The notes beneath the pieces were generated by a model. That model was not told the DNA's origin and searched no databases. It saw only the letters and a list, made by a program, of their open reading frames with translations. A program made the position numbers and the translations under genes. Below, in pieces: positions 3,748-53,831 of a stretch of 64,000 nucleotides of DNA. The stretch is from an uncultured Pseudomonadales bacterium (GTDB lineage Bacteria > Patescibacteriota > Microgenomatia > UBA1400 > PJMF01), in NCBI GenBank assembly GCA_964607285.1, contig CAZSJW010000001.1, positions 2,514-66,513 on the forward strand. Reading direction: 5' to 3'. Every line of letters begins with the position of its first letter. Within the stretch, counting starts at the first letter, position 1.

Positions 3748-3758
3748 GGTATACTACC

Positions 3759-4139
3759 TTGCAATTCACACATGAAGAGAATATGAATATGAACACGGAA
3801 CGCCTAGCTCGTTTTGAATTACCACAACCCCCAAGAGACGAGTGGGTTGCTAGACAGTATGTTAAGTACGGTCTTGGTGTTGATCCGTCACTTGAGAGAA
3901 TTGAGCCAGTTGCTACTGAGCTTCTAGCAAATCTAAGTACAGTATTGATTGGTGCAGAACTTGTACTTGGCAGACGAGTGGATGGTGACGTAAAGAAAGA
4001 GCCTGAGGTGTTGCCTTTACTTTTTGCTCGTGGACTTACTGGAAGAGAACGGTTTGGTTTGCTTTTGATGCTAAGAAGTATTGAAGAAGCAATTGCAGCA
4101 AAGCCTGAGACACAAGTTGACAATGGTACTGAAGAATAA
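3759..4139 (+). CDS. Hypothetical acidic protein inserted between map and infA
   Basis: 126-aa ORF with ordinary composition. The overlapping antisense ORF 3713..4192 is Ser-rich and looks like a shadow frame. No recognisable motif. The start could instead be one of the internal ATGs (MNMNTERL...). Confidence 0.5.
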   Translation: MQFTHEENMNMNTERLARFELPQPPRDEWVARQYVKYGLGVDPSLERIEPVATELLANLSTVLIGAELVLGRRVDGDVKKEPEVLPLLFARGLTGRERFGLLLMLRSIEEAIAAKPETQVDNGTEE

Positions 4140-9936: not shown

Positions 9937-9937
9937 G

Positions 9938-10729: not shown

Positions 10730-10736
10730 TGGCTAC

Positions 10737-11759
10737 TTAGTTTGATTTTGGTTTTTTCGTGCTTTGTTTTTCAAACACCTCACGAATGATTGCTTCAATT
10801 GGTGGTTCCTCAATGTTCACGTCTTGCACTGGTAATTTATTGAGAATTTGCGCAGCAACTTTGGTGGCAGTTGCTCGGGGAACTAGAATGGTTGCCGTAT
10901 ATGCAGATCCATCTTCACTATGTTCTTTGACTTCACCAAACTGTTTGAGAGCAGAGCGAGTTACGGGTTCTGAAAAAGTAAACGACAAAATCTTATTCCG
11001 TGCAAAAGTATCGATGATTTTTTGCAGCTCACCATCAAATATTTTCTGACCACGGTCAATAATGATAGCGCGTTTGCACAGTTCTTTGACGTCTCCCATG
11101 TAGTGGCTGGTCAGGATAATTGTTGATCCAAACTCTTTGTTATACTGTTTTATAAAGTCTCGTAAGGTTTTTTGCATTACCACATCAAGTCCAATGGTTG
11201 GTTCATCCAAAAATAATACTTGTGGGTTATGGAGTAGTGCAGCTATAAGTTCACATTTCATACGTTGGCCTAAAGACAGTTTCCTCACTTGCACATCTAG
11301 AATTTCTGAAACATCTAGAAGGTCAACTAACGTACTCAGTGTTTTTTTGAACTGAGCCTCTGGTATCTCATAAATTGCTTTGTTGAGCAAAAATGTCTCC
11401 ATGGCGGGCAAGTCCCACCATAGTTGATTTTTTTGACCCATCACTAGTGCAAATTGTTTTTGAAATTCTGGTTTGCGATCCCAGGGGTTGTAGCCGAGTA
11501 CATTGACTGAACCTTCAGTCGGATACAGCAAGCCCGAAAGCATTTTGAGTGTTGTAGTTTTTCCCGCACCATTTTGGCCAATGAAACCAACAACTTCACC
11601 AGGTTGAATAGTGAAACTAACATCATCTACCGCTTTGACTTCGTGATACTCTCTATGCCAGAGCGACTTGAATGAACCAAGCAAGCCTGCTTCTTTATGA
11701 TAAACCTTGAAATATTTTTTGAGGTTTTGGATGGAGATGATGGGCGGTGTGTCTGACAT
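10737..11759 (-). CDS. ABC transporter ATP-binding protein (the only NBD in the cluster)
   Basis: Walker A GQNGAGKTT, signature LSLGQRMK, Walker B VLFLDEPTIGLD, H-loop TSHYM. About 100-aa C-terminal extra domain. Confidence 0.92.
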   Translation of the reverse strand: MSDTPPIISIQNLKKYFKVYHKEAGLLGSFKSLWHREYHEVKAVDDVSFTIQPGEVVGFIGQNGAGKTTTLKMLSGLLYPTEGSVNVLGYNPWDRKPEFQKQFALVMGQKNQLWWDLPAMETFLLNKAIYEIPEAQFKKTLSTLVDLLDVSEILDVQVRKLSLGQRMKCELIAALLHNPQVLFLDEPTIGLDVVMQKTLRDFIKQYNKEFGSTIILTSHYMGDVKELCKRAIIIDRGQKIFDGELQKIIDTFARNKILSFTFSEPVTRSALKQFGEVKEHSEDGSAYTATILVPRATATKVAAQILNKLPVQDVNIEEPPIEAIIREVFEKQSTKKPKSN

Positions 11760-11800
11760 ATGAGCTTCCTTGGATATATTGTACAGGATGTGCTAGTGTA

Positions 11801-12592
11801 TTAGGAGCTTACAGATGTATACGCTCTCAGCGCATACTTCCAGGCATATCGATGTAAGACATAAAAAATACAAAGTAAGACACACTCATAGAATACTAGC
11901 TGCCATGGTCTGTGTCCTAGCAGGAACAAGGTGGGGACATAGCCTAAGAATGCTACTGGGACGATAGCAATCAGCACGAACTGGAGTGATCCAGGAAAAA
12001 TGGAAATGGGATACTGTCCTGAGTCACTTGTTTTATCAAACAGTTCTAAAATCTGCTCAGCTCGAGTCATAACAAAGCCGAGTGTGGCGTACGTTGTCAA
12101 TGCAAAGTAGTGTACGAGCAAGCCTAACGAGACGACACAAAGTGCCAGCAGACTATTGGTGAGGCTGAGTTGCTCATGGACTTGTGATGCTTGATGTAGA
12201 AACAGTGCAATACAGAGGCCAAGCAGAGGAAGTTGGGTAAGGTCAGGTTTGCCCCAGGCTATGAAAAAAATAGGAGAAATTGGTTTGGTAAGATACTGGT
12301 CAACAACACCATGTCTGATTCCATCCCACAAGAATGATCGTAGGGCAACTATGTAGAGAATAAAGGCTATTGTGTACATGATGAAACACACACTGAGCAG
12401 CAGGGTGGACTCAGTCCGATTCCAGCTACCAAGTTCAGGTGCACGTTGGTACGCAAGTTGTTGCACCATGAATAACACGCCCATGTAGGCGGGCCCGTGT
12501 AGGAAGTGCACAAATGTATTCAGACGAAACGCAAGCAACACTTGCAGTCTTGTGAGAAATAACAGGTAATAAATATTGAGGTATCTCATCAT
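11801..12592 (-). CDS. ABC-2-type transporter permease, type-B paralog 2
   Basis: Multi-TM. Motif HGVVDQYLTKPISP. Tail RAYTSVSS. Confidence 0.8.
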   Translation of the reverse strand: MMRYLNIYYLLFLTRLQVLLAFRLNTFVHFLHGPAYMGVLFMVQQLAYQRAPELGSWNRTESTLLLSVCFIMYTIAFILYIVALRSFLWDGIRHGVVDQYLTKPISPIFFIAWGKPDLTQLPLLGLCIALFLHQASQVHEQLSLTNSLLALCVVSLGLLVHYFALTTYATLGFVMTRAEQILELFDKTSDSGQYPISIFPGSLQFVLIAIVPVAFLGYVPTLFLLGHRPWQLVFYECVLLCIFYVLHRYAWKYALRAYTSVSS

Positions 12593-12594
12593 AT

Positions 12595-13377
12595 CTAGAT
12601 TCCAGTTCCCTCATATTCCTGTATGCCCATACGCCAAAGCCATTGATTTCCAATATGCAGTACCACACCCCAGAGTGCTAGGGTACACAGACCGATAAGA
12701 CTTTCCTGTACAGTCAGTGCTCCTTGCAGGAGCCGTATTGGTGTTGAGGCTAAATGGGGGAAGGGTGTGAGAATAAGTATAGATTGTGCCCATTCAGGGA
12801 AGTAGTCAAAGGGTAGTAATAGCCCAGATAAAAAACGAAACAACACCGTCAAACCCCAGCGGACTGCAAAAATTTCAGTAAACCAAAATGCGCACACACT
12901 GATACTGCTGAGCAGTAAAAATGATACATAAAAAATAAGTGGAATATAGAGACTAAATAGTGCAAGTTGCAGTGACTCGGCATGAAATGAAAAACCAAAC
13001 ATATAAGCAAGGGGAACAAATGAAACAGCCTTCAACAGTGTGGCCAGCCCTGACTCGGCACCGATTTTGACCACATAAAACCAGTGTGGTGAAATTGGTT
13101 TAACTAAAAAACGAGATAAACCACCCTGCTTGATGTCTACTTCAATTTCATACGGGTGAAAGTTGCTGAGTGTGTAGAGAATTGCTGCACCAACAAAGTA
13201 GGTGATTGTTTCTGCTCTTGTGTAGCTGGCTGCAGGATTTGACTGCTCTACCGCCAACCATACCAGTGCAGTGAAGACAATCATGAGACTGTACTTTATC
13301 GTACTTAGCAGAAAATTAACCCGATACTCTAATGTATCTTGGATGGCAATTTTGGTAATCAAACCGTACACAGACAT
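12595..13377 (-). CDS. ABC-2-type transporter permease, type-A paralog 2
   Basis: Multi-TM. Motifs SYTRAETITY and QGGLSRFLVKPISP. Tail QEYEGTGI. Confidence 0.8.
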   Translation of the reverse strand: MSVYGLITKIAIQDTLEYRVNFLLSTIKYSLMIVFTALVWLAVEQSNPAASYTRAETITYFVGAAILYTLSNFHPYEIEVDIKQGGLSRFLVKPISPHWFYVVKIGAESGLATLLKAVSFVPLAYMFGFSFHAESLQLALFSLYIPLIFYVSFLLLSSISVCAFWFTEIFAVRWGLTVLFRFLSGLLLPFDYFPEWAQSILILTPFPHLASTPIRLLQGALTVQESLIGLCTLALWGVVLHIGNQWLWRMGIQEYEGTGI

Positions 13378-13392
13378 ACCAGGTATTGTAAA

Positions 13393-14193
13393 CTAACTCC
13401 CAGCACCCGCGTAGCGCAAGACGGAGTAGTGAAAAAATGTTCGTGCAGCAACAGTACTTACAATAGCAAAGGCCATAAAGTAGAGTAGCCAGTTGAGTTC
13501 CCATCTCCCAAGCAAGACTTCTGCGGGTATAGAACTCAGTAATCCAAATGGGAGTATTACAGTGAAGAGAAGTGCGCCCATTCCTTGATAGATACCACGA
13601 GGAACTTGAAACACTCTGCGTAGTCCTGGAATAATGTCGTTTATATTGTTGAGTCGCTCTACATAAAATGCCATTGTGGAAATTGCAAACCAAGTGTTGT
13701 AAATAATCAGCAGGCTGCATCCTAGTAGTGCAGTGTATGCTGCAATCGTTAGAAGACTTATAGGTACTCCAACTTTTTGTACACTCCACCACAAAATGCC
13801 CGCACCAATAATGAGTCGTGAGATCTGGGAATAGTTATTATCATGAATAGCCAGTAATAGTTGTGGATCCACAGGACGCAGTAAGAAGAGGTCAAAACTG
13901 CCATCAAATATGGATTGCGTGTACACACGCATTATTCTGTTAAAGAACGACCAGGTGAAGGAGTCTAGAATTGTGAATGTTGCTAACAGCACATATAACT
14001 CTGCGGTGTTCCACCCTGCAATAGTACCGTTGACTCGTAGCAGCAAGGCAAAAAAGAAAAAGTTGAACAGTGTCCATAGTATTGAAATAAAGGACCAAAA
14101 ATAAAAATTTGCTCTGTACTCAAACAGCAGCATCAGCCTGAGAGCGCGGAACTTCCAGAACAAATACCAGTAATAACTTACTCGGTTTTGCAT
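13393..14193 (-). CDS. ABC-2-type transporter permease, type-B paralog 1
   Basis: Multi-TM. Motif FDGSFDLFLLRPVDP. Tail LRYAGAGS. Confidence 0.8.
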   Translation of the reverse strand: MQNRVSYYWYLFWKFRALRLMLLFEYRANFYFWSFISILWTLFNFFFFALLLRVNGTIAGWNTAELYVLLATFTILDSFTWSFFNRIMRVYTQSIFDGSFDLFLLRPVDPQLLLAIHDNNYSQISRLIIGAGILWWSVQKVGVPISLLTIAAYTALLGCSLLIIYNTWFAISTMAFYVERLNNINDIIPGLRRVFQVPRGIYQGMGALLFTVILPFGLLSSIPAEVLLGRWELNWLLYFMAFAIVSTVAARTFFHYSVLRYAGAGS

Positions 14194-14196
14194 GGG

Positions 14197-15036
14197 TTAT
14201 CCTCCAGATGAAGCGTACTTGCGTACCCCGCTGCGCCAAAGTGCATCCACAGCAACCCCGAGTACCACCATTGTTGCTGCCAACATGAAAAGATCGCTAG
14301 ATTCAAGCACATATCTTCCTTGCAAGACACCTATGGGCACTGCATATAAAAACTTAAACGGGAGGAGGTTCGTGATTGTTCGCAGCCAATCAGGGAGAAA
14401 CTCCAAAGGCATGAGGGTGCCGCTGAGTATGGTGATACCTAGGAGTTTGAAGTGTTCCAGGCCTTGCGCCCCTTCAAACCAAAACGTTAGAAACGTGATC
14501 AGAATGCCAATGGCAAGTTGCATGAGGTATGCCACAAAAACAAGTGCTAGGAAACGGGCGAGAGTAATTAGTGAGATGGGTGGCAATGTAGTTCCTACTA
14601 CTTCTGCTGACCAATATATGAAAATAGAAAAAACTGGCAGAAACATACTGGCGTATAAAAGCTTACCGACTGTCTCACCCAAAACAATATCAGTCAGGTA
14701 GTAGTATGGCTTGGTGAAAAATCGATCAATTTGTCCCAAGCGAATTTCATCAGACCGCCAACCTTCAAAATGCACCTCAGTGAGGTTTGAGAGCAAGGCA
14801 CTGACTAGATAGTACGTGGTGATATCCGCTAACGTGTATCCATTAATGCTATTTTGGTCAGCATACAATTCCTGCCAGATGAGAAACAGGATAGCAAATG
14901 GCAAAAAACTCATGACAATCCAAATGGCCATTTCAGTGCGAAAAACCAAGACACGAGATATTTTGAAACGGACAATATGCAGATATCGCCAGATAGAGGC
15001 TAGAAAGCTGTGCTGAAGCGTACCAATGGCATGCAT
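14197..15036 (-). CDS. ABC-2-type transporter permease, type-A paralog 1
   Basis: Multi-TM. Motifs GYTLADITTY and LGQIDRFFTKPYY. Tail RKYASSGG. First gene of the seven-gene co-directional array. Confidence 0.8.
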   Translation of the reverse strand: MHAIGTLQHSFLASIWRYLHIVRFKISRVLVFRTEMAIWIVMSFLPFAILFLIWQELYADQNSINGYTLADITTYYLVSALLSNLTEVHFEGWRSDEIRLGQIDRFFTKPYYYLTDIVLGETVGKLLYASMFLPVFSIFIYWSAEVVGTTLPPISLITLARFLALVFVAYLMQLAIGILITFLTFWFEGAQGLEHFKLLGITILSGTLMPLEFLPDWLRTITNLLPFKFLYAVPIGVLQGRYVLESSDLFMLAATMVVLGVAVDALWRSGVRKYASSGG

Positions 15037-21782: not shown

Positions 21783-23432
21783 TCAGTCGTCTAACGAATA
21801 TGCTGCGAAAACATCTGTATAGACTGGTGATAGGTTGCCTTTAGGGTCGACAATCCAGAAGCCTCTACATTGATTTGCCTCTGGTTCAGGAACGGAGCAT
21901 TCGTTATCGAGGAGCTGCCAGTAGAAAACAAATGCCGCATGTGCTGCAAGAGCAGCAGCTGTGGCCTCTCTAACTAACTTTTTTGCGTCCTCGGGTGTGT
22001 AAGAACCTGGTCCATGAGGGACGCCTAGTTCACTGATAAACACCTTGGAGTGAGGAAAAGTTACTTGCAAGTACTCGAATGCACGGCTGAAGGCAGTTAA
22101 TCCCGCCTCAAGAATGGTGTCATAAGCAGAGTATCCGATATAGTCTGGTGTAAAGTCGAGTTGTGGAATAACTGCAGTGGCTGCTCTAACCTTCTCATAC
22201 CGAGCATCTTGCACACGGTTCACCTCAACTGAATGAGTAAGTTGTAACTGGGTGTTTGGATTCTGTGACTTGGCATCAGCGATAGCACGATGAATTGTGT
22301 TGAGATACTTGATGGCATTAGCGACTGCAAGCTCTGAAGCATCAAGCTCTCTTGCTGCCCAACCACCCTGAGCCTCAAGCATGTGCCAATCAAGTTCGTT
22401 AGGCGTCTGGATAATTATTTCTTTATCTAGATGACCATAGTTTCTTAGTAAATGTGAGACGAAGTCAAAAAACTCATTGTATGTGGACTGTAATTGCTGT
22501 TCAGTCAGGGGCTGATGAGAAATATTCCAAGCTGTGGCTGATTCTGGTAGTCCTGCTTCGGTAGTCACTACTAGGTGTTTTAGTTGGGGATGTTGGAATA
22601 CCCAGCCGAACTCAGAGGACTGAGCTACATCGAGAATAGTAACGCGCTCTGGGTCACTTGGACAAAAGCCAGTGAATTGATACACCCCATGTGGGTAGCG
22701 CGTCTTGTCAGGATGAGTGCCACAAATTACTCTGGGAGAAATTTCAACCTCTAGGGAAGAAAAGCCAAGCTGTGTAGCCATTTCTACCCCATCTGCGAGA
22801 AACTCTCTGCCAGTTTGTGGGTAAAGACCTGCAATGTGTGATACACCGATGCGCTCGTCTAGGTGCACAAGCTGTGGCTGAACTTCGCGAGTAAACTCGG
22901 CATCTGGTGAGTTGGTAGTTGGTGTTGCTTCGGGATCATGTGCGGTTGCAGGAGTGACTTGAGGTATGGGGGCACCTTCCTTCTTGCGCAGGCAAGCACT
23001 CAGTCCTAATAGCAGCATGCTAACGGTACAGGCAGATGTTTGTGTCAGGAAACGGCGTCTGGAGCGAGCCAGGAGCTTTTTGCGTTCTAAGATTTTTTGT
23101 TGCAGGGTAAGGCGATGTTGAATGGTGAGCAACATACTCCGTTCTACGGGTGTGTACTTTTTGGTTGCTTGGTTTGCAGAGTAAAGCTGCTCTTGAAGGT
23201 AAGATTGCAACAGTTCAAGTACCGAATAGTATTGATCTTTGTTAGCACTCGCGAGCCCGTCGGGAGTGATTGGCAAAAGTTGCTTGGCGCAGTTTATGAC
23301 ATCGGGAAATGAGAGCTTGCCGCTGGAAAGTTTTTGTAAGCTTTGGGGTAAGGTGTTGTTTTTAGCCGTTTCGGGGTGAGGCAGCTCTCGAGGCTGTTGG
23401 ACTGATTGTTCGGTATTTGTATAAAGAACCAT
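21783..23432 (-). CDS. Clan GH-A (GH5-like) glycoside hydrolase candidate with internal Tat-like/lipobox segment
   Basis: Beta-strand + NE (IIIQTPNELDW) and beta-strand + E (KVFISELGVPHG) about 125 aa apart, as for the acid/base and nucleophile of (beta/alpha)8 GH-A enzymes. SRRRFL followed by LLLGLSAC at residues 124-147. Alternative start ATG at 23135. Confidence 0.55.
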   Translation of the reverse strand: MVLYTNTEQSVQQPRELPHPETAKNNTLPQSLQKLSSGKLSFPDVINCAKQLLPITPDGLASANKDQYYSVLELLQSYLQEQLYSANQATKKYTPVERSMLLTIQHRLTLQQKILERKKLLARSRRRFLTQTSACTVSMLLLGLSACLRKKEGAPIPQVTPATAHDPEATPTTNSPDAEFTREVQPQLVHLDERIGVSHIAGLYPQTGREFLADGVEMATQLGFSSLEVEISPRVICGTHPDKTRYPHGVYQFTGFCPSDPERVTILDVAQSSEFGWVFQHPQLKHLVVTTEAGLPESATAWNISHQPLTEQQLQSTYNEFFDFVSHLLRNYGHLDKEIIIQTPNELDWHMLEAQGGWAARELDASELAVANAIKYLNTIHRAIADAKSQNPNTQLQLTHSVEVNRVQDARYEKVRAATAVIPQLDFTPDYIGYSAYDTILEAGLTAFSRAFEYLQVTFPHSKVFISELGVPHGPGSYTPEDAKKLVREATAAALAAHAAFVFYWQLLDNECSVPEPEANQCRGFWIVDPKGNLSPVYTDVFAAYSLDD

Positions 23433-23508: not shown

Positions 23509-23538
23509 AAAAAGCCCCTCTTGGGGGAGGGGCTTTTC
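23509..23538 (-). terminator. Intrinsic terminator downstream of 23563..24132
   Basis: Stem AGCCCCTC/GAGGGGCT flanked by an A-run on + (a U-run on the - strand). Confidence 0.7.
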
Positions 23539-23562
23539 GATGATTGTTGGTTTTGGGTGGGG

Positions 23563-24132
23563 TTAGGAGGACGGCTCGAACCAGAAGGTGGCACCTGTGT
23601 CCCACCCTCTCGCATAGTAGTCGTTGTAAGCCAGTTGCCAGCTAGGGTGAGTGTTTAGCTCACCTCCAACATCCACAACATGGTTTCCGCTGACATTCGG
23701 ACACGGATTTTCGTTCGGAATTTCTGAGTGAGGAGGCACTGGCCAAGCCACGCCACCTGTGCAGTATCCCGCGGGGGGTTGCATGGGGCCTGAAAACAGT
23801 ATCGGGAGAAAAATCACATTTGTGCCTCCCTGCATAGGCTCGAACCAGAAGGTGGCACCTGTGTCCCACCCTCTCGCATAGTAGTCGTTGTAAGCCAGTT
23901 GCCAGCTAGGGTGAGTGTTTAGCTCACCTCCAACATCCACAACATGGTTTCCGCTGACATTCGGACACGGATTTTCGTTCGGAATTTCTGAGTGAGGAGG
24001 CACTGGCCAAGCCACGCCACCTGTGCAGTATCCCGCGGGGGGGGTCACTGTTCCGCCCTGCCCATGCACAACAAGGGCAGTCAGCAGTGAAAAGAAAAAA
24101 ACAAGCATAGTCATTGTCAACTTGCGTTCCAT
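23563..24132 (-). CDS. Secreted protein consisting of a perfectly duplicated ~69-aa module
   Basis: Signal peptide MTMLVFFFSLLTALVVHG. The module PPAGYCTGGVAWPVPPHSEIPNENPCPNVSGNHVVDVGGELNTHPSWQLAYNDYYARGWDTGATFWFEP occurs twice. SD GGAGG upstream. Looks GC-richer than its surroundings. Confidence 0.85.
   Translation of the reverse strand: MERKLTMTMLVFFFSLLTALVVHGQGGTVTPPAGYCTGGVAWPVPPHSEIPNENPCPNVSGNHVVDVGGELNTHPSWQLAYNDYYARGWDTGATFWFEPMQGGTNVIFLPILFSGPMQPPAGYCTGGVAWPVPPHSEIPNENPCPNVSGNHVVDVGGELNTHPSWQLAYNDYYARGWDTGATFWFEPSS
23573..24042. repeat. Tandem direct repeat, period 264 bp, with 206 bp identical in both copies
   Basis: 23573..23778 is identical base for base to 23837..24042 (compared by eye). 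The copies end in G6 (23773..23778) and G8 (24037..24044) runs. Confidence 0.9.
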
Positions 24133-24417
24133 TCGTATCTACCTCCACTTACACCAGCCATCCCAATCCCCGAAGTGGGGCGGGTAGGCGTGGCGATCGA
24201 GCACTTTTCCAGAGAAAAGAACCCCATCACCACGCCCGAGGCGTGCGTTTGCGGGAGGTGCAACCATAGGAACGAGCCATAGGCAGCACAACTAATTCGA
24301 GTCGCAATATACCACTTGTTAACGAACAATCATCGAGAACTGGAGCGGAATGGTTCAGCAGGCAGCAATTGCCTGGAAACAGTCACGCGCCAGGGTGCCA
24401 ATCACTTGGCAGCGTGT

Positions 24418-24446
24418 ATTATACCCCTATAGACTTATAACGTCAA
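24418..24446 (-). promoter_or_regulatory. Sigma70-type promoter TTGACG-17-TATAAT driving the 23563..24132 gene through a ~280-nt leader
   Basis: On the - strand: TTGACG (24446..24441), 17-nt spacer, TATAAT (24423..24418). Confidence 0.6.
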
Positions 24447-24469
24447 TATTATAGGTTCATACATGCAGT

Positions 24470-24498
24470 TTGACTCCAGGCTAAATATGATGTAAAAT
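24470..24498 (+). promoter_or_regulatory. Sigma70-type promoter TTGACT-17-TAAAAT for 24528..24791
   Basis: TTGACT at 24470..24475, 17-nt spacer, TAAAAT at 24493..24498. SD GGAG about 7 nt before the ATG. Confidence 0.5.
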
Positions 24499-24527
24499 AA
24501 CCAAATAAGTATTGAAATGGAGATTAT

Positions 24528-24791
24528 ATGAAAATTGAAACTATGTCCACACCACTCGCTGCTTTATTTGTAGCTGTAGCTATCGCTGCAACCGCAGGTT
24601 TAGCTTACACTGCTGCTCAACAGCAGATGCGAAACCAAGCTGTGGAGAGTTGTTTCCGCGCTGGTATGGTGGAGTCTGTCCGCGAAGGCGAAGGAGAGAC
24701 TAAAGAGCTAAAAATCACTGAGCCAGTTCGTGAAATCTACACATACTGCTTGCAAGACAAGGGGTATACCTCTGTCATTCAGGGTAAGTAG
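24528..24791 (+). CDS. Small membrane-anchored/secreted protein
   Basis: 87 aa. N-terminal hydrophobic segment PLAALFVAVAIAATAGLAY, two Cys, own promoter and SD. Confidence 0.65.
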   Translation: MKIETMSTPLAALFVAVAIAATAGLAYTAAQQQMRNQAVESCFRAGMVESVREGEGETKELKITEPVREIYTYCLQDKGYTSVIQGK

Positions 24792-25708
24792 GTATCCCTG
24801 GGATCTAAAGTCGGATCAGTTTTTTCTAACACCACACTGAAGGGTGATGTCCCGCTGTAGTGTTTTGCGTCCATCATGGCGTATGCTTCTAGTTCGTACC
24901 CAGTAGTTAGATCCATAATTTGCTCGTACAGGGTATTAAATTTGCCTCGGAGGTATCTTAGTGGTAAAGCTAGAACCAAACTGATTGAGATTGCCCCTAA
25001 AGCCGAGGGGTTTGTAAGTGCTTGCTCAGCGATGGCAAAACCTGAGATAAATGCAGCTCCCGTGAAAGCCGCAAAGGTTTTGAGACGAAACTCTAAAATT
25101 CTACGATGAGCCTGTTTCATTTCTTTTGTTGGCCCTTTGACCCTTTGTATTAGATGTTGCCGTTCATGTCTCCACATTGCATCGAGAAGTTGTCGGAAAT
25201 ATTGGGGTTTATATTCCTCTGGTAAGTTTCTAGGAAAAAATAGTCGGTGTGTATGAGGCGTCCCTTTGGTAAACAGTGAATACAGAGATAGAATGTCAAA
25301 CTGCATTTTTGGTTCTGTTAGTAGCAACCGGTGATTCAATTTATCAACTTGATCTGCTGCAGACATTAGTATTGGTACGTCCAACTTTAGAATCTGGTTT
25401 GCGTGTTCAGTATCATTGGACATCACACCAGCTTTAATGCTGCGCACTAGCTCGGATTGATTTGTTTGGCTGCTAATGATCGGTACAAAGGTGTCCGAAA
25501 TCCGTTCCGCTTCAGCCTCTGATAGACCTTGTCGAATTGCTTCTGCTTTGAGGTCTGCTCTCATGCGTGCAGTATCGATTCTGATAATTGCATGTGCTTC
25601 GGAAATCTGTATACCAATCTCGTATACTCGATCCTTCAGGAGCTCAGTCACTTGCTTTTCAGAGATGTGTCGTTGTGTTGAGCCCTCACTTGGATTTTTT
25701 TCTGACAT
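24779..25708 (-). CDS. HExxH-motif membrane protein (intact paralog)
   Basis: 309 aa. Soluble N-domain, conserved LDAMWRHERQHL (HExxH), two hydrophobic segments, then ELEAYAMMDAKHY. Paralogous over its full length to 25748..26724. Confidence 0.8.
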   Translation of the reverse strand: MSEKNPSEGSTQRHISEKQVTELLKDRVYEIGIQISEAHAIIRIDTARMRADLKAEAIRQGLSEAEAERISDTFVPIISSQTNQSELVRSIKAGVMSNDTEHANQILKLDVPILMSAADQVDKLNHRLLLTEPKMQFDILSLYSLFTKGTPHTHRLFFPRNLPEEYKPQYFRQLLDAMWRHERQHLIQRVKGPTKEMKQAHRRILEFRLKTFAAFTGAAFISGFAIAEQALTNPSALGAISISLVLALPLRYLRGKFNTLYEQIMDLTTGYELEAYAMMDAKHYSGTSPFSVVLEKTDPTLDPRDTYLP

Positions 25709-25747
25709 ACTACAATGAGTATACAGGAAACCGTGGTAGTTAGAACT

Positions 25748-26724
25748 TTAACTAAAGTATTTTTTGTGAGGATCCATGTTCGGATCAGCTTTTTCAAGCC
25801 GAACAGTGAATGGTGAGTTGGCTCTGTGGTGTTCTGCAGTCATCATGGCGTAGGCCTCAATTTCTTCGTTACTTAGCAAGTTTAGCGCTCTGTCACTAAT
25901 CATACTCACAAGTATGCTAACTGGCATAGCTAGTCCAATTGAGACGTTTACACTTGGAGGTAGCTGAAGATTCAGCAAAGACAATCCAGTAGAAGCCCAA
26001 GAAAGAAACAAAGCACCTTTAAAGACGGAGCGCATTAGGTTAGCAATTTTACGATGTCTAATATGTGAATCTGTGATTCCCTTATCCTTCTCTGGCTTTA
26101 AGTATTGCACTAAATGCTCACGCTCGTGTCGCCACATCGCATCCAGTGCTTGCTTGATGTACTGAGTTTTCATTTCTGGAGGCAGCGTATCTTTGGGAAA
26201 AACCACACGAACAGAACTTAGTGCATGTTTGCTAAATAAGGAGTGTATGCTGATGATATCAGGACTTACTTTAGCCGAGCGTAGTTGAAATCGATGATTG
26301 AAACGAGTCTCTTTTCAAATGTTTCGAGTATCCCTTCCCAGTCAAATCCGAGCATTGAGCCAAGCTCAGCAACTTTTCTTACGAATGTCCCTTGGTCTTG
26401 CTCATTTTTTCCAGGTCTTCGTCTTTGATTAAAAAGTACAATATTGTCTCTACCAATTATTGGGAAAAAAAGTTTTGCTGCTAGTTCTGCCCTGGGCTCA
26501 GAAACCCCTTGCTGTATAGCATACTCGTAGAGATCCTGGCGCATCTTACCTGTATCTACTGAAATAGTTGCGATGTCATCATCAAAGGGTTGGATAAGCT
26601 CATACACTTGATCTTCACCCAGTTCCAGTAGTTCCTCATCTGTGATTTCCTGAGGTCTGACAGGAGCGATATCTAAAGTATTTGGATGTAAAGTATCTGT
26701 AGAATGTGTCTCATCGTAGTTCAT
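25748..26724 (-). pseudogene. Frameshifted paralog of 24779..25708 (tracked as two ORFs, 26266..26724 and 25748..26206)
   Basis: The N-ORF aligns to the N-half of the intact paralog and the C-ORF to the C-half (LDAMWRHEREHL, EIEAYAMMTAEHH). C-frame homology continues upstream of its ATG (NHRFQLRSAKVSPDIISIHSLF vs NHRLLLTEPKMQFDILSLYSLF). The frames switch near GAAAAG (26311..26316). Confidence 0.7.
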
Positions 26725-26841
26725 AGTTGTTTATCCCTATTGTTTGGGAACTATCCAGATACCAGCGTAGCATACGCAACAGAGCTTGAGAAGCCAACAC
26801 TGACTTGCGGAAACGGTGATAAATCAGCATACTGTGAGCAG

Positions 26842-28986
26842 ATGCCCAAATCAGTTCCACAGTTGCTCAGGAAATCACTTAGTTCCCTATTGTTTCACTT
26901 GCCTGTGATTGTGTTGGGCATGTTTTTAGCAGCGTGGTTTACATTCCCTGCTATCACCCAACTGCGAACACACTTCATCGGTGATGGTGGAGATAACTAC
27001 CAGTACGCAGGTTTTCAGTACCTAGTAGCTACTAACATCGATTCTGGCAAGTGGCCGTATGCTGCTTTGCAGAGTTGGTACTATCCAAATGGTTTTGAGT
27101 TTGCTCGTGGGTATGACAGTGTTTTGTCTACACTGGGTGGTGGGTTGTTGGTTTTGTTGACTAGGGATTTAGCCTATAGCTATAACTTAAGCATCCTCTT
27201 CTCCTTCCTTTTCAATTTTTTAGCAGCATACGCGCTGTATTGGAATCTGAGCCGCTCTCGGATGTGGGCAAGTGTGGGTGCGGTGCTGTTTGGTTTCTCG
27301 TTTTATGCACTCGCACGGGCGGGGGGGCATGCGAACTTGTTGCTGATTGGTGGGTTTCCCTTATTCCTTTTGAGTCTGCTGCAGTTGCTACGTAAACAAG
27401 AGTGGCGAGCGGTGCTTCTGTTGGGTTTGGCTAGTATTTTGCTAGTGTTTAGTTCTTTACAGTACGCGCTAATGGCAGTGGCAAGTTTATTGATCGGTAT
27501 ACCACTGGTTGCATTAGTGTATCCAGAAGCAATGGGGGCAGTGCTGTTCAAAAAAATACCAGCTGCGTTTTTGCAGTTAGCGGTCGTAGGATTGTTTGTG
27601 TGTGTGGTGGCTGCACCATTTGTTTGGCCATTTATCCATGCATATCAGGCACAGGATTTTTATCAGCGAGGCGAGTTCGACTTTAGTCCTCGTATGGTGG
27701 ATTTATTGCTGCCAAACCCATATTTTCCTGTTCCCTTGAGTTCGCTATTACCAGTTGTTCCTGGTACGGTGGGGATTGAACAGACGATTGCGCTTGGACC
27801 TGTATTTTTTGTGTTGATTGTTTTTTTGCTGTGGAGGTTTCGCAGGCAGCATGTAGTGGGCTTAGCGGGTTTGGTGCTCACGGTATTTGGCATTTTGGCA
27901 CTAGGCACGCGTAACCCTGAGACAGGCATCATCTTGCCTTACCACTTGCTGAGTTCGGTCTTCCCATTTTCGGCAATTCCTGAGGCTGGTCGGTTTGTGG
28001 TGGTTATGAATGTTGTAGGTGGGGCATTGATTGCATCATATGGCAAGAAGATTTTTCGAGGGCGGGCAGCTCGTGTGTCACTTGGGATGTTTGTCTTAGT
28101 TTTGCTCATTCTTGAACGGTCAAGTTGGGGCAAGTTCTTTCAGCTGCCAGTACCGAGTTTGGGGTTAGCGCAAGCAGTGCAGGCACAACCAGGTGCTGCA
28201 GTCTTGGAGCTGCCACTGTTTGAGCAGCGACAAAGTGTCTCACCTGTGTACTTCCACAAAGCTACCCTCACTGGAGAACCGCACTGGCTGGCGCATACTC
28301 CCCAGGCTATGGCTTTTTTGCAGGGTAATCCTGCGCTGGCGGGGTTGACGTGTTTTGATCGCACGCATTTGACAGGGACGGTGCCAGGGCAAGGTTTGAG
28401 CATTAGCACAGAGGAGCGCGCAGCCTTTTTCAAGTACCTCAAAACTGCAGGTGTTCAAACTGTGGTGATCCGCAGGGATGGAACGCTGTACTGGGATATG
28501 TGTCGTGAAACACTTGCACGGATTGATCAACTTTTCCCACAGTATCTTACTGCTGAAATCACTGCGCAGGGAGCACAGTCAGAGACGCAGATGTTTTGGA
28601 GTGGAGAGGCGTTCACTGGTGGGCTGTACTTCCCAAGTAGTGGAGCTTTAACTATTCATGGCTTTTCCTATATGCCCTATGATGAGCAACCAGAATTGAG
28701 GATTGATGGTCAACAGGTGTCTGCTGAGCAGTGGAGCTATGAAGTTTCAACGCATGAGAGCGGGGAGCGAATGGTCTTTGTTCGTACAGGCGCAGCTGGT
28801 GAGCGACACCAGGTATCTGCTGGAGCTACGCTGGAAACGACTATTGCTAAAACGCCGCAACACCGGGGGGTGCTGACACTTTGGTACACGTATGAGCCAG
28901 TGGGTGCTGAAGAGCTACAGCTACAGGATGGAGTAGTTACAAAAGTGTATGAGGAGTCGGCTGTGGAGGTGTGGCGGATTGAGTGA
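26842..28986 (+). CDS. 714-aa polytopic membrane protein, GT-C/YfhO-like candidate
   Basis: ATG at 26842 preferred, because the tracked start 26704 overlaps the divergent gene. At least 12 hydrophobic segments followed by a ~230-aa soluble C-terminal region. Family not verified. Confidence 0.7.
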   Translation: MPKSVPQLLRKSLSSLLFHLPVIVLGMFLAAWFTFPAITQLRTHFIGDGGDNYQYAGFQYLVATNIDSGKWPYAALQSWYYPNGFEFARGYDSVLSTLGGGLLVLLTRDLAYSYNLSILFSFLFNFLAAYALYWNLSRSRMWASVGAVLFGFSFYALARAGGHANLLLIGGFPLFLLSLLQLLRKQEWRAVLLLGLASILLVFSSLQYALMAVASLLIGIPLVALVYPEAMGAVLFKKIPAAFLQLAVVGLFVCVVAAPFVWPFIHAYQAQDFYQRGEFDFSPRMVDLLLPNPYFPVPLSSLLPVVPGTVGIEQTIALGPVFFVLIVFLLWRFRRQHVVGLAGLVLTVFGILALGTRNPETGIILPYHLLSSVFPFSAIPEAGRFVVVMNVVGGALIASYGKKIFRGRAARVSLGMFVLVLLILERSSWGKFFQLPVPSLGLAQAVQAQPGAAVLELPLFEQRQSVSPVYFHKATLTGEPHWLAHTPQAMAFLQGNPALAGLTCFDRTHLTGTVPGQGLSISTEERAAFFKYLKTAGVQTVVIRRDGTLYWDMCRETLARIDQLFPQYLTAEITAQGAQSETQMFWSGEAFTGGLYFPSSGALTIHGFSYMPYDEQPELRIDGQQVSAEQWSYEVSTHESGERMVFVRTGAAGERHQVSAGATLETTIAKTPQHRGVLTLWYTYEPVGAEELQLQDGVVTKVYEESAVEVWRIE

Positions 28987-29033
28987 GTGTGGTAGTATGT
29001 GATGAGTATAGTGTTTTGTGTAAAGGAGCAGAT

Positions 29034-29261
29034 ATGAACCAGTATAAGGAAATGTATTCAGCAACAATGCAGCGGCATGCTAATATGGTACTCAATGACT
29101 GGCTGATGAACCCAGAAACTCCGTTGGAGAAAATTCAAGAAGAAGAAGGTCAAATTAAATTAGCAATAGCCCGTGTTGAAAGAGGGGAAGTGACTTCTGA
29201 GCACAAAGTTGAGGAGTTGAAGCAGCGGTATACTGCTGTTTTGGGGGTGAATTGGAGTTAG
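29034..29261 (+). CDS. Small hypothetical protein
   Basis: 75 aa from the ATG at 29034, with SD AAAGGAG. The tracked upstream GTG extension overlaps the previous gene. Confidence 0.5.
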   Translation: MNQYKEMYSATMQRHANMVLNDWLMNPETPLEKIQEEEGQIKLAIARVERGEVTSEHKVEELKQRYTAVLGVNWS

Positions 29262-29314
29262 CTTTATTGTGTAGACTTGTGTGGCTTTAGCACTCATAGA
29301 TCAGAAATCGTAAC

Positions 29315-29397
29315 AAAAAACCCCCTCATCATTGCTGATGAGGGGGGCTAAACTACGGCTTCTACTGGTGTAGCGAGTGAGCCAGAACTACGAACTT
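29315..29397 (-). ncRNA. Candidate ~83-nt small RNA with its own promoter and intrinsic terminator
   Basis: On the - strand: TTGTCA (29431..29426), 16-nt spacer, TATAAT (29409..29404). About 50 nt of unique sequence follows, then an 11-bp GC-rich hairpin (29347..29321) and U6 (29320..29315). No ORF. Family unknown. Confidence 0.45.
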
Positions 29398-29525
29398 CTT
29401 AAAATTATACTAAATTTCTATTGCCTGACAATTAGTGAATTCCAGGCTCTAGTCAGTTGTGGAGGCGACCCCGCCATGGCGGGGCAAGCCAGAGTTCGTA
29501 GTTCTGGCTCTACACCGGTAGCGCC
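29357..29525. repeat. Long imperfect inverted repeat (arms ~39 and ~32 nt, 98-nt spacer)
   Basis: Left arm 29357..29395 (GGCTTCTACTGGTGTAGCGAGTGAGCCAGAACTACGAAC) pairs with right arm 29494..29525 (GTTCGTAGTTCTGGCTCTACACCGGTAGCGCC). The core of 17 bp is perfect. Confidence 0.85.
29404..29431 (-). promoter_or_regulatory. Sigma70-type promoter TTGTCA-16-TATAAT inside the loop of the 29357..29525 inverted repeat
   Basis: Read directly from the reverse complement of 29404..29431. Confidence 0.5.
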
Positions 29526-29904
29526 CCCACAGCTGACAGGTGTAGTGTATTTTCTGATCTTTACGCAAACTGTAGCGTTCTTGTTGCAGCAAGTGCTTTT
29601 GTGGCATGCACTGGTGTTTGATCTGTTGCAAACTTTTGGGTTTTCAACTTGGTGGTGATGTTATTACGCGGTTGTAGCAGAGCAGTTTAGCTTACTGGAA
29701 ATTGAAGGGTTGGTTGATAAAACAGTTTAACTAGCGTATGAGCGTTGTAGTTCATTTCAGCTATGATGGACATTTTGTGGTGTGGTGAGAATGTTGAGGA
29801 TTGGGATAAGATTAATAGTGGGTGTATTGGCAAAAAGGGGATTGTGGTGGAGGAAGTAAAGAAAAAGTTGAGATTGTAGAGGTTTTTGAGCATGATGAGG
29901 CAAT

Positions 29905-29934
29905 AAAAAGCCCGTCTTGGGGACGGGCTTTTCA
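29905..29934 (-). terminator. Intrinsic terminator downstream of 29951..30604
   Basis: Stem AGCCCGTC/GACGGGCT with a U-run on the - strand. Near-identical in design and sequence to the terminator at 23509..23538. Confidence 0.7.
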
Positions 29935-29950
29935 GTGAGTGTTATGGGGG

Positions 29951-30604
29951 CTACGGTGAGGAAAACAAAGCAATCTTGGTCACGAATTCCTGAAACCAGG
30001 TAGCACAAAGTACATTTCGCGACAAAGCTTGTTCAGCGTATGTCACACAATAACTTGTGCGTTGCTCTGATGTCAGGAGTTGCTCGGCTCGCTGGAATGC
30101 CCATGCGAGGTGTTCTGGCGTGATATAGGACTGGTGCGGGTTCAATCCCGCAGTAGCCAATCCATTCACACTTTCACACTGCACAACGAGGGGGTGACCC
30201 AGGGCCACGTTCCCCTCGTCTAATTTCCAAACGCTTCCGTTGACCCATCCCGTTCGGTCGGCCATAGCATCAACTTCTGCGCGTCCGTTGGCTTGGCACG
30301 CGCTGTGTGCATTTGCTGGGTTGGTCGAGCCGCCCCAGGGGCCGATAACCAGGACAGTGGCGTTTTCCAGGCATTGCCAATTGTCCTTGGTAGATGTGGT
30401 TACACCCGCTCCAGACTCGTTTGTACCCTGGTAAACCAGGGCGTCTTGACCTGTACAAACGCGTTCGGTAAACACCCCAGGTGTTCCTGGGGCGGGGTCA
30501 GGAGACCCCGATTGCGCCTGTGCGGCTGGCGCGACCGGTCCAAGCAGGACAACGGCTAAAATGGCACCCAAAATGAGGCCAAGGACGATTTGATAGCGCT
30601 TCAT
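29951..30604 (-). CDS. Secreted Cys-containing protein (217 aa)
   Basis: ATG at 30604 is preceded by AAGGAG. Signal peptide MKRYQIVLGLILGAILAVVLLGPVAPAAQA. Multiple Cys. Looks GC-richer than neighbours. The tracked 270-aa ORF has an unlikely N-extension. Confidence 0.8.
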   Translation of the reverse strand: MKRYQIVLGLILGAILAVVLLGPVAPAAQAQSGSPDPAPGTPGVFTERVCTGQDALVYQGTNESGAGVTTSTKDNWQCLENATVLVIGPWGGSTNPANAHSACQANGRAEVDAMADRTGWVNGSVWKLDEGNVALGHPLVVQCESVNGLATAGLNPHQSYITPEHLAWAFQRAEQLLTSEQRTSYCVTYAEQALSRNVLCATWFQEFVTKIALFSSP

Positions 30605-31289
30605 CGTTTTAAACTCCTTACTAGCGCAAACGTTAAATGACCTTTTCGTAGTCATCACGCCTATGCCTCTTTGCCATTTCTGGCAAGTCTGACATAGGAC
30701 CCTGCGCCCAAAGCACCTCGCTCGCTGCAACAAACTTGCAGACGGAACAAAGCCTTTAGCCACACGATCCTATGCCAAACATAGAGACAGTACGCTTTGA
30801 GGAGCACTGTATTTGGTAGCCGATGTGGTTTCCCACATCTTATTCCCACTTTTTAAAGAACAATCACTGGGCAAGGGTTGATGGTAGTCGAACGGCACAC
30901 GAGGTGACGCTCGAGCAGCTATCTAGCTTGCTCTTATCAGCAGTTATGCGAACAATCATTTGGCAGCAATTGCCAATGGTTTTTCGCGGTGAACCACTGG
31001 TATCAAGAAGAAACTTCTTGACACGTGTTTCAGTCCAAACTGGGGGGAGAGAAAGAAAGGGTGGACGGAAACAACTGTCAATAAGTCTGAGAGTCATGTC
31101 GTGCGTGGCCGCAACGTAAGTGCCATCAGGGGTGAAATTGATTCGAGCGATGGCAGAGCTCGAAGCTACATAAGGCATACGTATTACTAGATAGTACTAT
31201 AGCACAATTGGGCAGTGGTGTCAATGTTATGGGACTTTATCTTGTAGAGAATTTTTGTTAGAAAGAGAGTACTTTCTTCGGACACATAC

Positions 31290-52096: not shown

Positions 52097-52170
52097 CGGG
52101 GAGTAGTTCAGATGGCTAGAATGCTCGCATGGGGTGCGAGTGGTCGCAGGTTCGAGTCCTGTCTCCCCGA
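52097..52170 (+). tRNA. tRNA-Pro (anticodon GGG)
   Basis: Hand-folded cloverleaf. Acceptor CGGGGAG/CTCCCCG, D-arm with GG, anticodon stem CTCGC/GCGAG, loop AT-GGG-GT, 5-nt variable loop, T-arm GCAGG-TTCGAGT-CCTGT, discriminator A. CCA not encoded. Confidence 0.9.
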
Positions 52171-53831
52171 CATTCAAGGACAGAGGGTAGTTTTGCAATG
52201 GTTTCGAACTTAGGATTCCATTGGTGAGTCAATACTTTTTTGTCCTTTATAGTGAAGTTCAAAAAGACCATTCGAATGATACTGTCTGTTGCTAGGTGAT
52301 TATCGCTTGTTTTCAGAGTAGAAACGATGTTTTTGATAAAGTTCGAAAAGTCTGTGTAAGACATCACTTTTTCTTTGAGTAAAGATTGAGCATCAACTCG
52401 CTGGCTCTTTACCTGTGCCAGTTTAGCTTCTAATTGCTCGATTTCATCCCTGGCTTGGAGTATTTTTTCTCTTGCTACCTTGATTGACTTGTCATCACCC
52501 TCAAGTCTCACCACGATAAGCTGTTGGTCTGAAATAATTGTTTCCAGGTCGTTTATTTGTTTGGAAATAGAGCGTTGGTCGCTTTCCAACTCTTTGGCAG
52601 AGCTAACTAATTGGCGTTTGGCATCTGCCACGTACTGGTTGTAGGCTTTTTCGTCTATACCGATGCCACCTGCTAATACCTCATAAACATACTCAAAAAT
52701 AACTTTTGCCCTGATTTCTCGTAAACCCTTCACCTTGTGAGAATAACAACCGCCAGTGGAACACTTTATTCGTAGATAAGTGATAAGTGACTCTGGTTTA
52801 TTTTTATTGAGATATGTTGTCATCAGGTTACCGCAGTACCCACACACCACCATCTGGTCTAGCAGTGGAGTTGCTTTGTCCTGAGCCTTCTTATAGCCCC
52901 TTTTACCGTCCAGAATGTTTCGCAAGCGTAAGTAGTCCAGATATGACATCGCAGGTGTAAATAAGTGGTCGAACTTAGTCAGGTCAACCATATTTTTTCC
53001 ATACACGTAGTAGCCAGTATAGGAGGGGTCGAGAAACATTGCTGAGACGAGTTGTTTCGTCATCCTGGTTTTTTCGCCATTTTGACTGTAGTTGTTTTCA
53101 TTGAGGTACGATGCAATCACATCTTGTGATTTGCCTTCGATACCCATCTGAAACGCTTGCTGGATGAGTTCAAAGTTTTTCCCATCTTTACGTTGGCGTT
53201 TATTGATTACTTTGTAACCTCGCAGAGCCTTGTTGCCGATGGCTTTGCCTTCACCGATAATGTTTTCATTGCCTCTTGAAACGTTTATGGAGAGGTTATC
53301 ACTGTAGGCTTTGGCGAGTAGAAACTGTAAGCCAAGGGTCATCAGTCCATTCGGGTCACGCTGAAAAGAAAACTGTGGAAACTTGAGGTCTTTGATAATA
53401 CCTCGGTCGATTAGGTCAATAATCTCACCTGCATCCTTCATATTTCTCCCAAGGCGGTCTGGATGCCAGCAGATGATAGCGTTATACGATTTCTTAGACT
53501 TGATTTCGTCCATCATTTCTTCAAATACCTCACGGTTAGCCGATTTTCGGGCTGATTTTTCTTCCTTGAGAACATCTACCACCTTCAAACCCTCACGCTT
53601 GGCTAGAGCTTTACTGTCTTTGATTTGGTCTGGAATGGAGCGTTCTTGACGTTCTACTTGCTTGCCATCTTGGTTTTTCTTTTTACCCTTAGTAGATTTA
53701 CGAGCGTAAATGACATACACAGGTGGCTTGTCATCAGGGAGTGGTTTTCCCGCCTTTTCTAAGCGGTCAAAAACGATGCTTTGAGCTATTTCAAAGACTT
53801 GCTGTTTATATTCTGCATTGGTGTCTGGCAT
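52116..53831 (-). CDS. Large serine recombinase (phage-integrase type)
   Basis: N-terminal resolvase domain VIYARKSTKG...SIPDQ...DRLGRN. Recombinase domain. Zn-ribbon CGYCGN...KCSTGGC. Coiled coil. The last ~18 codons run antisense through the 3' part of tRNA-Pro. Confidence 0.88.
   Translation of the reverse strand: MPDTNAEYKQQVFEIAQSIVFDRLEKAGKPLPDDKPPVYVIYARKSTKGKKKNQDGKQVERQERSIPDQIKDSKALAKREGLKVVDVLKEEKSARKSANREVFEEMMDEIKSKKSYNAIICWHPDRLGRNMKDAGEIIDLIDRGIIKDLKFPQFSFQRDPNGLMTLGLQFLLAKAYSDNLSINVSRGNENIIGEGKAIGNKALRGYKVINKRQRKDGKNFELIQQAFQMGIEGKSQDVIASYLNENNYSQNGEKTRMTKQLVSAMFLDPSYTGYYVYGKNMVDLTKFDHLFTPAMSYLDYLRLRNILDGKRGYKKAQDKATPLLDQMVVCGYCGNLMTTYLNKNKPESLITYLRIKCSTGGCYSHKVKGLREIRAKVIFEYVYEVLAGGIGIDEKAYNQYVADAKRQLVSSAKELESDQRSISKQINDLETIISDQQLIVVRLEGDDKSIKVAREKILQARDEIEQLEAKLAQVKSQRVDAQSLLKEKVMSYTDFSNFIKNIVSTLKTSDNHLATDSIIRMVFLNFTIKDKKVLTHQWNPKFETIAKLPSVLECRGDRTRTCDHSHPMRAF

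Follow-up and report, generated by a model that had tools for sequence, protein, structure and literature searches.

boxA-containing leaders and complementary trailers around two secreted-protein genes in a 64-kb bacterial chromosome segment

Analysis of a 64-kb stretch of bacterial chromosome (the window; all positions are given in its coordinates) revealed two genes for unrelated secreted proteins, gene 1 at 23563..24132 and gene 2 at 29951..30604, each with a boxA element in its leader and a trailer complementary to both flanks of that boxA. Both units are transcribed from the minus strand. It is probable (about 70%) that each gene forms a transcription unit complete in itself and organized like the 16S portion of an rRNA operon, with a leader loaded with Nus factors and with rRNA-like pairing of the transcript ends. 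As read from the sequence, each unit is composed of a predicted strong sigma-70-type promoter with an upstream block, a long leader in which a boxB-like hairpin precedes boxA, the coding region, the trailer, and an intrinsic terminator. This reading is carried by the sequence identity of the core with boxA, its presence in related rRNA leaders, its invariance across loci, and a leader-trailer complementarity that is specific to each locus. The homologous loci compared were L002/L003, L004, and L006 (close) and L038, L039, L040/41, and L042/43 (distant relatives of gene 2).

The boxA element and its leader

An initial annotation of the window had matched the upstream regions of the two genes by short shared motifs. 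All strings quoted in it were present where they had been placed: CGAACAATCAT occurs exactly only at 24323 and 30949, and GGCAGCAATTGCC exactly only at 24361 and 30962. The frequency of CGAACAATCAT is not random (6 matches with at most one mismatch versus 1.08 expected; 0 of 100 shuffles reached 6). The proposed pairing of 24323 with 30949 had to be revised in that the motif copies are real, but the better counterpart of 24312..24334 is 30846..30867, and 30949..30959 is poorly conserved in orthologues. Realignment of the leaders yielded a shared 22-mer, ATGATTGTTCGTTAACAAGTGG (24333..24312) and GTGATTGTTCTTTAAAAAGTGG (30867..30846); comparison of 24312..24334 with 30846..30867 gave 1 and 2 mismatches, with 0 matches expected from shuffle controls. 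The remaining copy in locus 2 (30943..30958, minus strand; UGAUUGUUCGCAUAAC) is a degenerate boxA-like sequence and, because it is poorly conserved in L002 and L004, is probably not the functional boxA site.

In locus 1, boxA and its flanks occupy 24312..24336 on the minus strand (UCGAUGAUUGUUCGUUAACAAGUGG), with the core GUUCGUUAACA at 24327..24317 and flanks that serve as the leader arms of the helix described below. In locus 2, boxA and its flanks occupy 30845..30869 on the same strand (CAGUGAUUGUUCUUUAAAAAGUGGG), with the core GUUCUUUAAAA at 30861..30851. Compared with the published boxA consensus, GYTCTTTAANA (PMC5725501), locus 2 (GTTCTTTAAAA) is a perfect match and locus 1 (GTTCGTTAACA) matches at 10 of 11 positions. 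The conserved core follows the pattern GTGATTGTTC(G/T)TTAA(C/A)AAGTGG, which can also be written as GTGATTGTTC(G/T)TTAACAAGTG.

The boxA core was identical in L002, L004, and L006, with flanks that varied, and boxA was present in the leaders of homologous loci from all seven other organisms. All four distant gene 2 relatives contained a strict sense-strand boxA 157 to 311 nt upstream of the start codon (chance probability about 0.003 or less per locus), which is too far for the occlusion of a ribosome binding site seen at suhB. The L038 copy reads TGCTCTTTAACAA. A second strict boxA was found in L040/41, in the leader of a gene 1 homologue located directly downstream of the gene 2 relative. 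In every locus for which the promoter region was available, boxA was positioned on the coding strand 90 to 360 nt downstream of a predicted consensus promoter. A chance likeness of short motifs and generic terminators might be suspected, given blocks of only 11 to 13 nt and the tendency of terminators with GC stems to converge in sequence. This explanation is already refuted by the shuffles, which give 0 expected occurrences of the 22-mer, by the recurrence of the elements in the same order in all homologous loci, by the boxA matches in the distant relatives, and by the leader-trailer statistics given below.

Upstream of the core, a boxB-like hairpin, GGCA-AUUGC-UGCC, was found in five leaders. 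It lies at 24359..24375 in locus 1 (CAGGCA-AUUGC-UGCCUG) and at 30960..30976 in locus 2 (UUGGCA-AUUGC-UGCCAA), on the minus strand in both cases. Across the five leaders, both sides of the stem change in 3 of 6 pairs, a covariation score that was reached by 3 of 500 shuffles. The leaders of L002, L004, and L006 keep the element order of the window, namely, promoter block, hairpin, and core.

The promoter of locus 1 is predicted at 24418..24455 (minus strand) and comprises the block CCTATAATATTGAC (24455..24442) and a -35 box TTGACG, a 17-nt spacer, and a -10 box TATAAT (24446..24418). The promoter scan score was 11 of 12, and the transcription start is predicted near 24411. The predicted promoter of locus 2 (31196..31233, minus strand) comprises the block CCCATAACATTGAC (31233..31220) and TTGACA, a 17-nt spacer, and a TG-extended -10 box TATAGT (31224..31196), with a transcription start predicted near 31189. 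Exact matches to the block CCYATARYATTGAC were found in the 64 kb at these two promoters only (24442-24455 and 31220-31233, minus strand). The block is exact in L002, L004, L006, and (as judged by eye) L040, and close variants of it are present in L038 and L041. It could represent an UP-like element or a regulator site.

The 5' leader of locus 1 (24133..24412, minus strand) is about 280 nt long, untranslated, and structured, with conserved blocks and hairpins. Nucleotide identity between locus 1 and L006 was 71% in the leader and 46% in the coding region. The 5' leader of locus 2 (30605..31190, minus strand) is about 586 nt long; it was 79% identical to that of L002, with 91.5% identity in a 250-nt core and 61.6% in the coding region. 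Upstream of boxA, leader 2 contains a C-rich, G-poor stretch (37% C and 15% G in one 78-nt segment). Because such stretches, which may allow Rho loading, are clear in locus-2-type leaders only, they were kept out of the core evidence. A 104-aa open reading frame (ORF) in leader 2 (30864..31178), which appeared WD40-like by eye, was rejected because a 4-nt indel in L002 breaks its reading frame.

The extended boxA sequence was also found in rRNA leaders. An identical 20-mer is present in the 16S leaders of L015 and L024, which are Patescibacteria-type contigs; the rRNA operon of the window's own genome lies elsewhere. Both contigs came from a scan of 185,579 species genomes with a relaxed core, which returned 30 matches versus about 35 calculated for chance. 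The two matches share a near-identical context in the 16S rRNA leader, and the other 28 were judged to be chance. In L015, the distance from the site to the 16S 5' end downstream is about 160 nt, and a promoter precedes the site by about 190 nt. A strict-pattern scan of the genome collection returned no match, and a metagenome scan returned one true orthologue (L006) and one chance match (L005). As a separate observation, the 16S gene of L024 (300-900, minus strand), from a Patescibacteria metagenome-assembled genome, carries an insertion near its 5' end that encodes a small protein, and the 16S 5' start is duplicated.

It is unlikely that the leaders instead contain a Nus-independent cis-regulatory RNA or protein site, such as a riboswitch, an attenuator, or a lineage-specific operator, with a boxA likeness that is coincidental or convergent. 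Much structure is conserved beyond boxA, including the 250-nt core and long hairpins, and the promoter block CCYATARYATTGAC could be the site of a regulator; features of this kind may add to boxA. Searches of Rfam at gathering and permissive thresholds revealed no family, the only sub-threshold matches falling on the terminators. Furthermore, the boxA core alone is unchanged in both gene families and in every distant locus, and its extended form recurs in rRNA leaders, which argues against such a site.

Predicted pairing of leader and trailer

The trailer of locus 1 (23537..23560, minus strand; CCAC...AAC.AACAAUCAUCGA) lies between the stop codon and the terminator and is complementary to both boxA flanks, as is the trailer of locus 2 (29933..29950, minus strand; CCCCCAUAACACUCACUG). 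In locus 1, UCGAUGAUUGUU (24336..24325) pairs with AACAAUCAUCGA (23548..23537), and GUGG (24315..24312) pairs with CCAC (23560..23557). In locus 2, CAGUGAUUGUU pairs with AACACUCACUG, and GUGGG pairs with the CCC run that opens the trailer. Where the two leader arms differ (GA/AG), the trailers differ correspondingly (UC/CU). The similar sequence beside the two terminators (23539..23551 and 29933..29947, plus strand), which the initial annotation had taken as part of the shared flanks, is real but is no separate flank, as it is the inverted-repeat partner (reverse complement) of the boxA flanks.

Comparison across the loci revealed the arm pairs CGAUGAUUGUU/AACAAUCAUCG, CAGUGAUUGUU/AACACUCACUG, CCGAUGGUG/CACCAUCGG, CCUGGCGG/CCGCCAGG, and UGACGACU/AGUCGUCA, with ACUUCAGAUG/CAUCUGAAGU as a further pair in the same locus as the last and CACUUGGUU/AACCAAGUG as an additional one. 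The arm sequences are specific to each locus and are matched by the trailer of the same locus, with the boxA core unpaired throughout, which indicates that pairing is maintained by covariation. Leader-trailer pairing was found in five of the six other organisms with a testable 3' end. The perfect complementary runs exceeded those of random 60-nt windows in most loci (P from <0.0005 to 0.04); the run of locus 1 is 12 bp long (P < 0.0005). When leaders were cofolded with their trailers, the pairs were more stable than those with shuffled trailers in all eight loci tested (z between -3.0 and -6.9; -6.9 for locus 1 and -5.8 for locus 2). Unconstrained minimum-free-energy folding of the 908-nt transcript of locus 1 predicted a 19-bp helix across about 770 nt (summed pairing probability, 17.9), in which the boxA flanks pair with 23537..23560. 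For the 1,291-nt transcript of locus 2, a 15-bp helix across about 900 nt was predicted (summed pairing probability, 14.7), with 29933..29948 as the partner.

The same repeats could in principle act as DNA. Site-specific inversion (phase variation) through inverted repeats, in which a flip would cut the leader and coding segment from the promoter, would agree with the 12-bp perfect inverted repeats that flank the coding region of locus 1, with the promoter outside, and with a cargo that is secreted and fast-evolving. It is nevertheless extremely unlikely, since all nine loci, from independent assemblies, show the same orientation to the promoter, the arms vary between loci, and those of locus 2 have a mismatch. 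The second helix 3' of boxA and the invariant boxA loop would, moreover, have no role in inversion. A fixed loop between variable arms is characteristic of an RNA helix that encloses a protein-binding site, not of recombinase ends.

Each trailer is followed by an intrinsic terminator, at 23509..23538 in locus 1 and at 29905..29933 in locus 2 (both on the minus strand). At both loci, a GC-rich hairpin and a U-tract follow shortly after the stop codon; the locus 1 terminator is bidirectional in form (A-tract, GC stem, T-tract). The claim of near-identical terminators that differ by a compensatory C/G swap was borne out, with 27 of 30 aligned positions identical (E value, 0.006), and AAAAGCCC occurs in the 64 kb at these two terminators only. 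The L002 terminator that is orthologous to that of locus 2 has a different stem with compensatory changes, and each of the two terminators resembles the other slightly more closely than it resembles its own orthologue. This likeness could result from a common origin of the regulatory shell, from homogenization within the genome, or from chance.

Two further elements were observed near the 3' ends. A second complement of the boxA flank, TGATTGTTCG (23403-23412, plus strand), is located downstream of terminator 1, about 20 nt inside the next gene (21783..23432). It could be a pairing partner after read-through or a chance occurrence (about 0.8 copies of a 9-mer are expected per window). Next to locus 2, at 29321-29431 (minus strand), a promoter-like TTGTCA-16-TATAAT is followed by a strong terminator, CCCCCTCATCAGCAATGATGAGGGGG, with a T-run; this segment, for which Rfam gave no match, is possibly a small RNA unit. 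Its counterpart in L002 (4140-4250), identical over roughly the final 48 nt, is positioned on the opposite side of the gene 2 orthologue. Near the unit in the window is an 18-bp perfect inverted repeat (29379-29396 and 29493-29510).

The bracketed genes and their neighborhood

Gene 1 encodes a 189-aa secreted protein of unassigned fold with two exact copies of a domain of about 75 aa that contains two cysteines. Gene 2 encodes a 217-aa secreted cysteine-containing protein that belongs to a small family without a known domain. The description of the two products as dissimilar secreted proteins agrees with a BLASTP E value of 0.38 between them and with signal-peptide-like N-termini on both. Pfam gave no match for the two proteins, their immediate neighbors, or most of the distant relatives, and the AlphaFold models were unusable (mean predicted local distance difference test scores of 41.5 for gene 1 and 42.5 for gene 2). 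Homologues of gene 1 were found in L006 and in L041 (E value, 5e-15); a word-indexed protein search with gene 1 and the 87-aa neighbor returned self-matches and the L006 copy and nothing else. A profile search of 1.84 billion proteins revealed 22 representatives of the gene 2 family. Its close homologues, in L002/L003 and L004, share 55 to 58% protein identity; four distant members were fetched (L038, L039, L040/41, and L042/43), and the three that were measured share 36 to 39%.

The domain of gene 1 is duplicated by an exact 206-bp direct repeat (23573-23778 and 23837-24042; period, 264 bp). The L041 homologue contains an exact 202-bp repeat with a period of 219 (3410-3611 and 3629-3830), and L040 (3293-3661) has a single copy, although it is 100% identical to L041 in the aligned sequence on both sides. 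The Logan contig L037 ends exactly at the edge of the repeat. These observations suggest recurrent duplication or copy number variation of the domain, or else assembly collapse.

Both coding regions are richer in GC than the backbone, as the initial annotation had judged by eye. Their values of 54.2% and 55.5% versus an ORF mean of 44.4 ± 2.9% rank first and second among 54 ORFs, and their GC content at third codon positions is 55% versus 38.8 ± 5.6% for the ORFs of the window. The coding regions of the distant homologues likewise have 50 to 60% GC versus 37 to 42% in the flanks. The excess is present in every homologue examined, down to 36% protein identity, and is therefore not a mark of recent transfer. 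It is an ancient property common to the homologues, which could stem from selection, amino acid composition, or another cause.

The genes are embedded in a conserved order that consists of an M23 peptidase gene, a 132-aa gene, gene 2, an 87-aa gene, gene 1, a glycosyltransferase gene, and an 1,128-aa gene. Synteny of the neighborhood held in L004, L038, and L040/41, and in L040/L041 the gene 1 and gene 2 types adjoin directly. The conserved gene order indicates an old, vertically inherited expression module. The initial annotation had left a choice between a common regulatory module and a horizontally acquired cassette or transfer module. The former was supported, as the flanks belong to one conserved expression shell of promoter block, hairpin, boxA, trailer, and terminator.

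A mobile or horizontally acquired cassette, with the shared flanks as ends or recombination sites around differing cargo, is very unlikely. Both units lie about 10 GC points above the backbone, an inverted repeat brackets each of them, and they have the only AAAAGCCC-type terminators in the 64 kb, all of which would suit a cassette. The gene order is kept, however, in L004, L038, and L040/41, and the GC excess also occurs in homologues at 36 to 58% protein identity. Neither locus has a recombinase or transposase gene as a neighbor, and mobile-element ends were likewise not found beside the loci. The repeat arms differ wholly between the loci and the boxA loop is invariant, which is the reverse of a recombinase site. 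The recombinase gene nearest to the loci (52116..53831) encodes a large serine recombinase with Resolvase and Recombinase domains and overlaps a tRNA-Pro(GGG) gene (52097-52171). A recombinase gene abutting a tRNA gene is the usual layout of an element integrated at a tRNA.

The window as a whole has a GC content of about 44% and includes secY, rpoA, recA, an RNase Y gene, a gene for a peptide chain release factor (PCRF and RF-1 domains), ftsEX-like genes, genes for a Mur ligase and FemAB, and many ORFs without a Pfam match. From this gene content and the rRNA-leader matches, we infer a Patescibacteria-like host. Outside the two loci, a row of six genes for ABC-2 type membrane proteins and one for an ABC ATPase was found at 9136-15036 (minus strand). 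A 95-nt direct repeat with 73% identity (24801-24895 and 25770-25864) joins the 3' ends of a 309-aa and a 152-aa ORF, which from this repeat are probably paralogues.

Known boxA systems, mechanism, and implications

The arrangement resembles the Escherichia coli rrn leader, with its antitermination complex (rrnTAC) and 16S leader-trailer helix (PMC10250234, PMC6614797, PMC4807359), in the order of promoter, hairpin, and boxA. In E. coli, the rrn leader has the order boxB, boxA, boxC (PMC10250234), and boxA is UGCUCUUUA (PMC6614797), compared with UGUUCUUUA here. In both systems, a complementary leader and trailer bracket the product, and the leader arm adjoins boxA. The looping model for rrn, according to which a polymerase-anchored boxA presents the leader to the emerging trailer (PMC10250234, PMC6614797), fits the geometry of the two loci. 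In contrast to E. coli rrn, the bracketed product is a secreted-protein mRNA, and the intrinsic terminator directly follows the trailer. The helices are also short, totaling 15 to 19 bp, and lie immediately beside boxA, which is left in an internal loop; they do not run through boxC. There is no clear boxC, and GAUGUGGG in locus 2 bears a weak resemblance to it. Because a protein-coding region is bracketed, the helix is regarded as an analogue, not a member, of the rrn-type leader-trailer helix.

Other boxA sites lie outside rRNA operons. The boxA leaders of protein-coding genes described in 2017 (PMC5725501) show that the action of Nus factors extends beyond rRNA, and here too boxA precedes a coding gene. 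That study looked for boxA no more than 50 nt from the start codon, and the suhB site represses expression (PMC5725501). The sites described here differ in lying 157 to 311 nt upstream, in having a trailer partner, and in belonging to a distant Patescibacteria-like lineage. boxA has also been found upstream of CRISPR arrays, where a role in blocking Rho termination was proposed (Stringer et al. 2020, PMC7665894). Like the CRISPR-array boxA, that of the two loci is placed early in a long RNA with poor or no translation, and its spacing from the start codon is closer to the rrn and CRISPR arrangement than to that of suhB. The product is, unlike that of CRISPR arrays, a coding mRNA, and we know of no leader-trailer helix described for CRISPR arrays. 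The nut sites of phage lambda (boxA and boxB with the N protein) share the joining of boxA to a hairpin; the lambda order of boxA before boxB is reversed here, and no N-like protein is evident.

Several points weigh against an rRNA-operon-like reading of the two units. The rRNA leader of the host and nusB, nusE, rho, and rnc lie outside the window, and a Pfam scan of roughly 40 window ORFs revealed neither nus nor rho genes. Because the host's own rRNA leader is outside the window, the link to its rrn boxA rests on related contigs. Only about nine loci were at hand from a poorly sampled lineage, and the transcription starts are predictions. At consensus position 5, T is replaced by G in locus 1, L002, L004, and L006. 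In L042, the 60 nt after the stop codon contain no trailer, and another gene comes immediately afterwards. Finally, the helices, which consist of 8 to 12 bp and 4 to 10 bp on the two sides of an internal loop, do not reach the length of classical RNase III substrates.

By analogy, we infer a Nus-factor mechanism at these leaders. NusB and NusE (S10), with NusA and NusG, would bind boxA on the nascent RNA and remain on RNA polymerase. The complex could keep Rho from terminating transcription in the long untranslated leader and perhaps in the coding region as well. As proposed for rrn, the leader would in addition be retained at the RNA exit channel, so that the trailer could pair with it on emerging. 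The resulting helix would join the 5' part of the mRNA to its 3' part beside the terminator hairpin and could stabilize the mRNA or create an RNase III-type processing site. It may be speculated that trailer pairing strips boxA from the complex just ahead of the terminator.

A tentative extension of this model is that the lineage reused the complete transcription and processing shell of the rRNA operon (promoter, boxB, boxA, helix, and terminator) for fast-evolving secreted proteins and that Nus tethering may yield an mRNA that is end-paired (functionally circularized) or processed by RNase III. To our knowledge, no mRNA architecture of this class has been reported for protein-coding genes of bacteria. 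Each of the two elements, boxA and the leader-trailer helix, is known, and their combination around an mRNA was not found in the literature searched, in which no paper linked boxA to Patescibacteria or leader-trailer helices to protein-coding genes.

boxA and the Nus factors have long been regarded as dedicated to rRNA, with few other established targets, such as suhB and CRISPR arrays. In the loci described here, which come from a poorly known, largely uncultivated lineage, boxA is combined with a leader-trailer helix that covaries and encloses ordinary protein-coding genes. A boxA with a complementary trailer just ahead of a terminator is a signature that can be searched for in other genomes. 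If the proposed reading is true, polymerase-tethered RNA looping extends from ribosome biogenesis to mRNA, and the loci would provide a natural test case for the promotion of long-range RNA pairing by the Nus complex. They would also represent an unrecognized route to stabilize or process the mRNAs of secreted proteins that may act at the cell surface.

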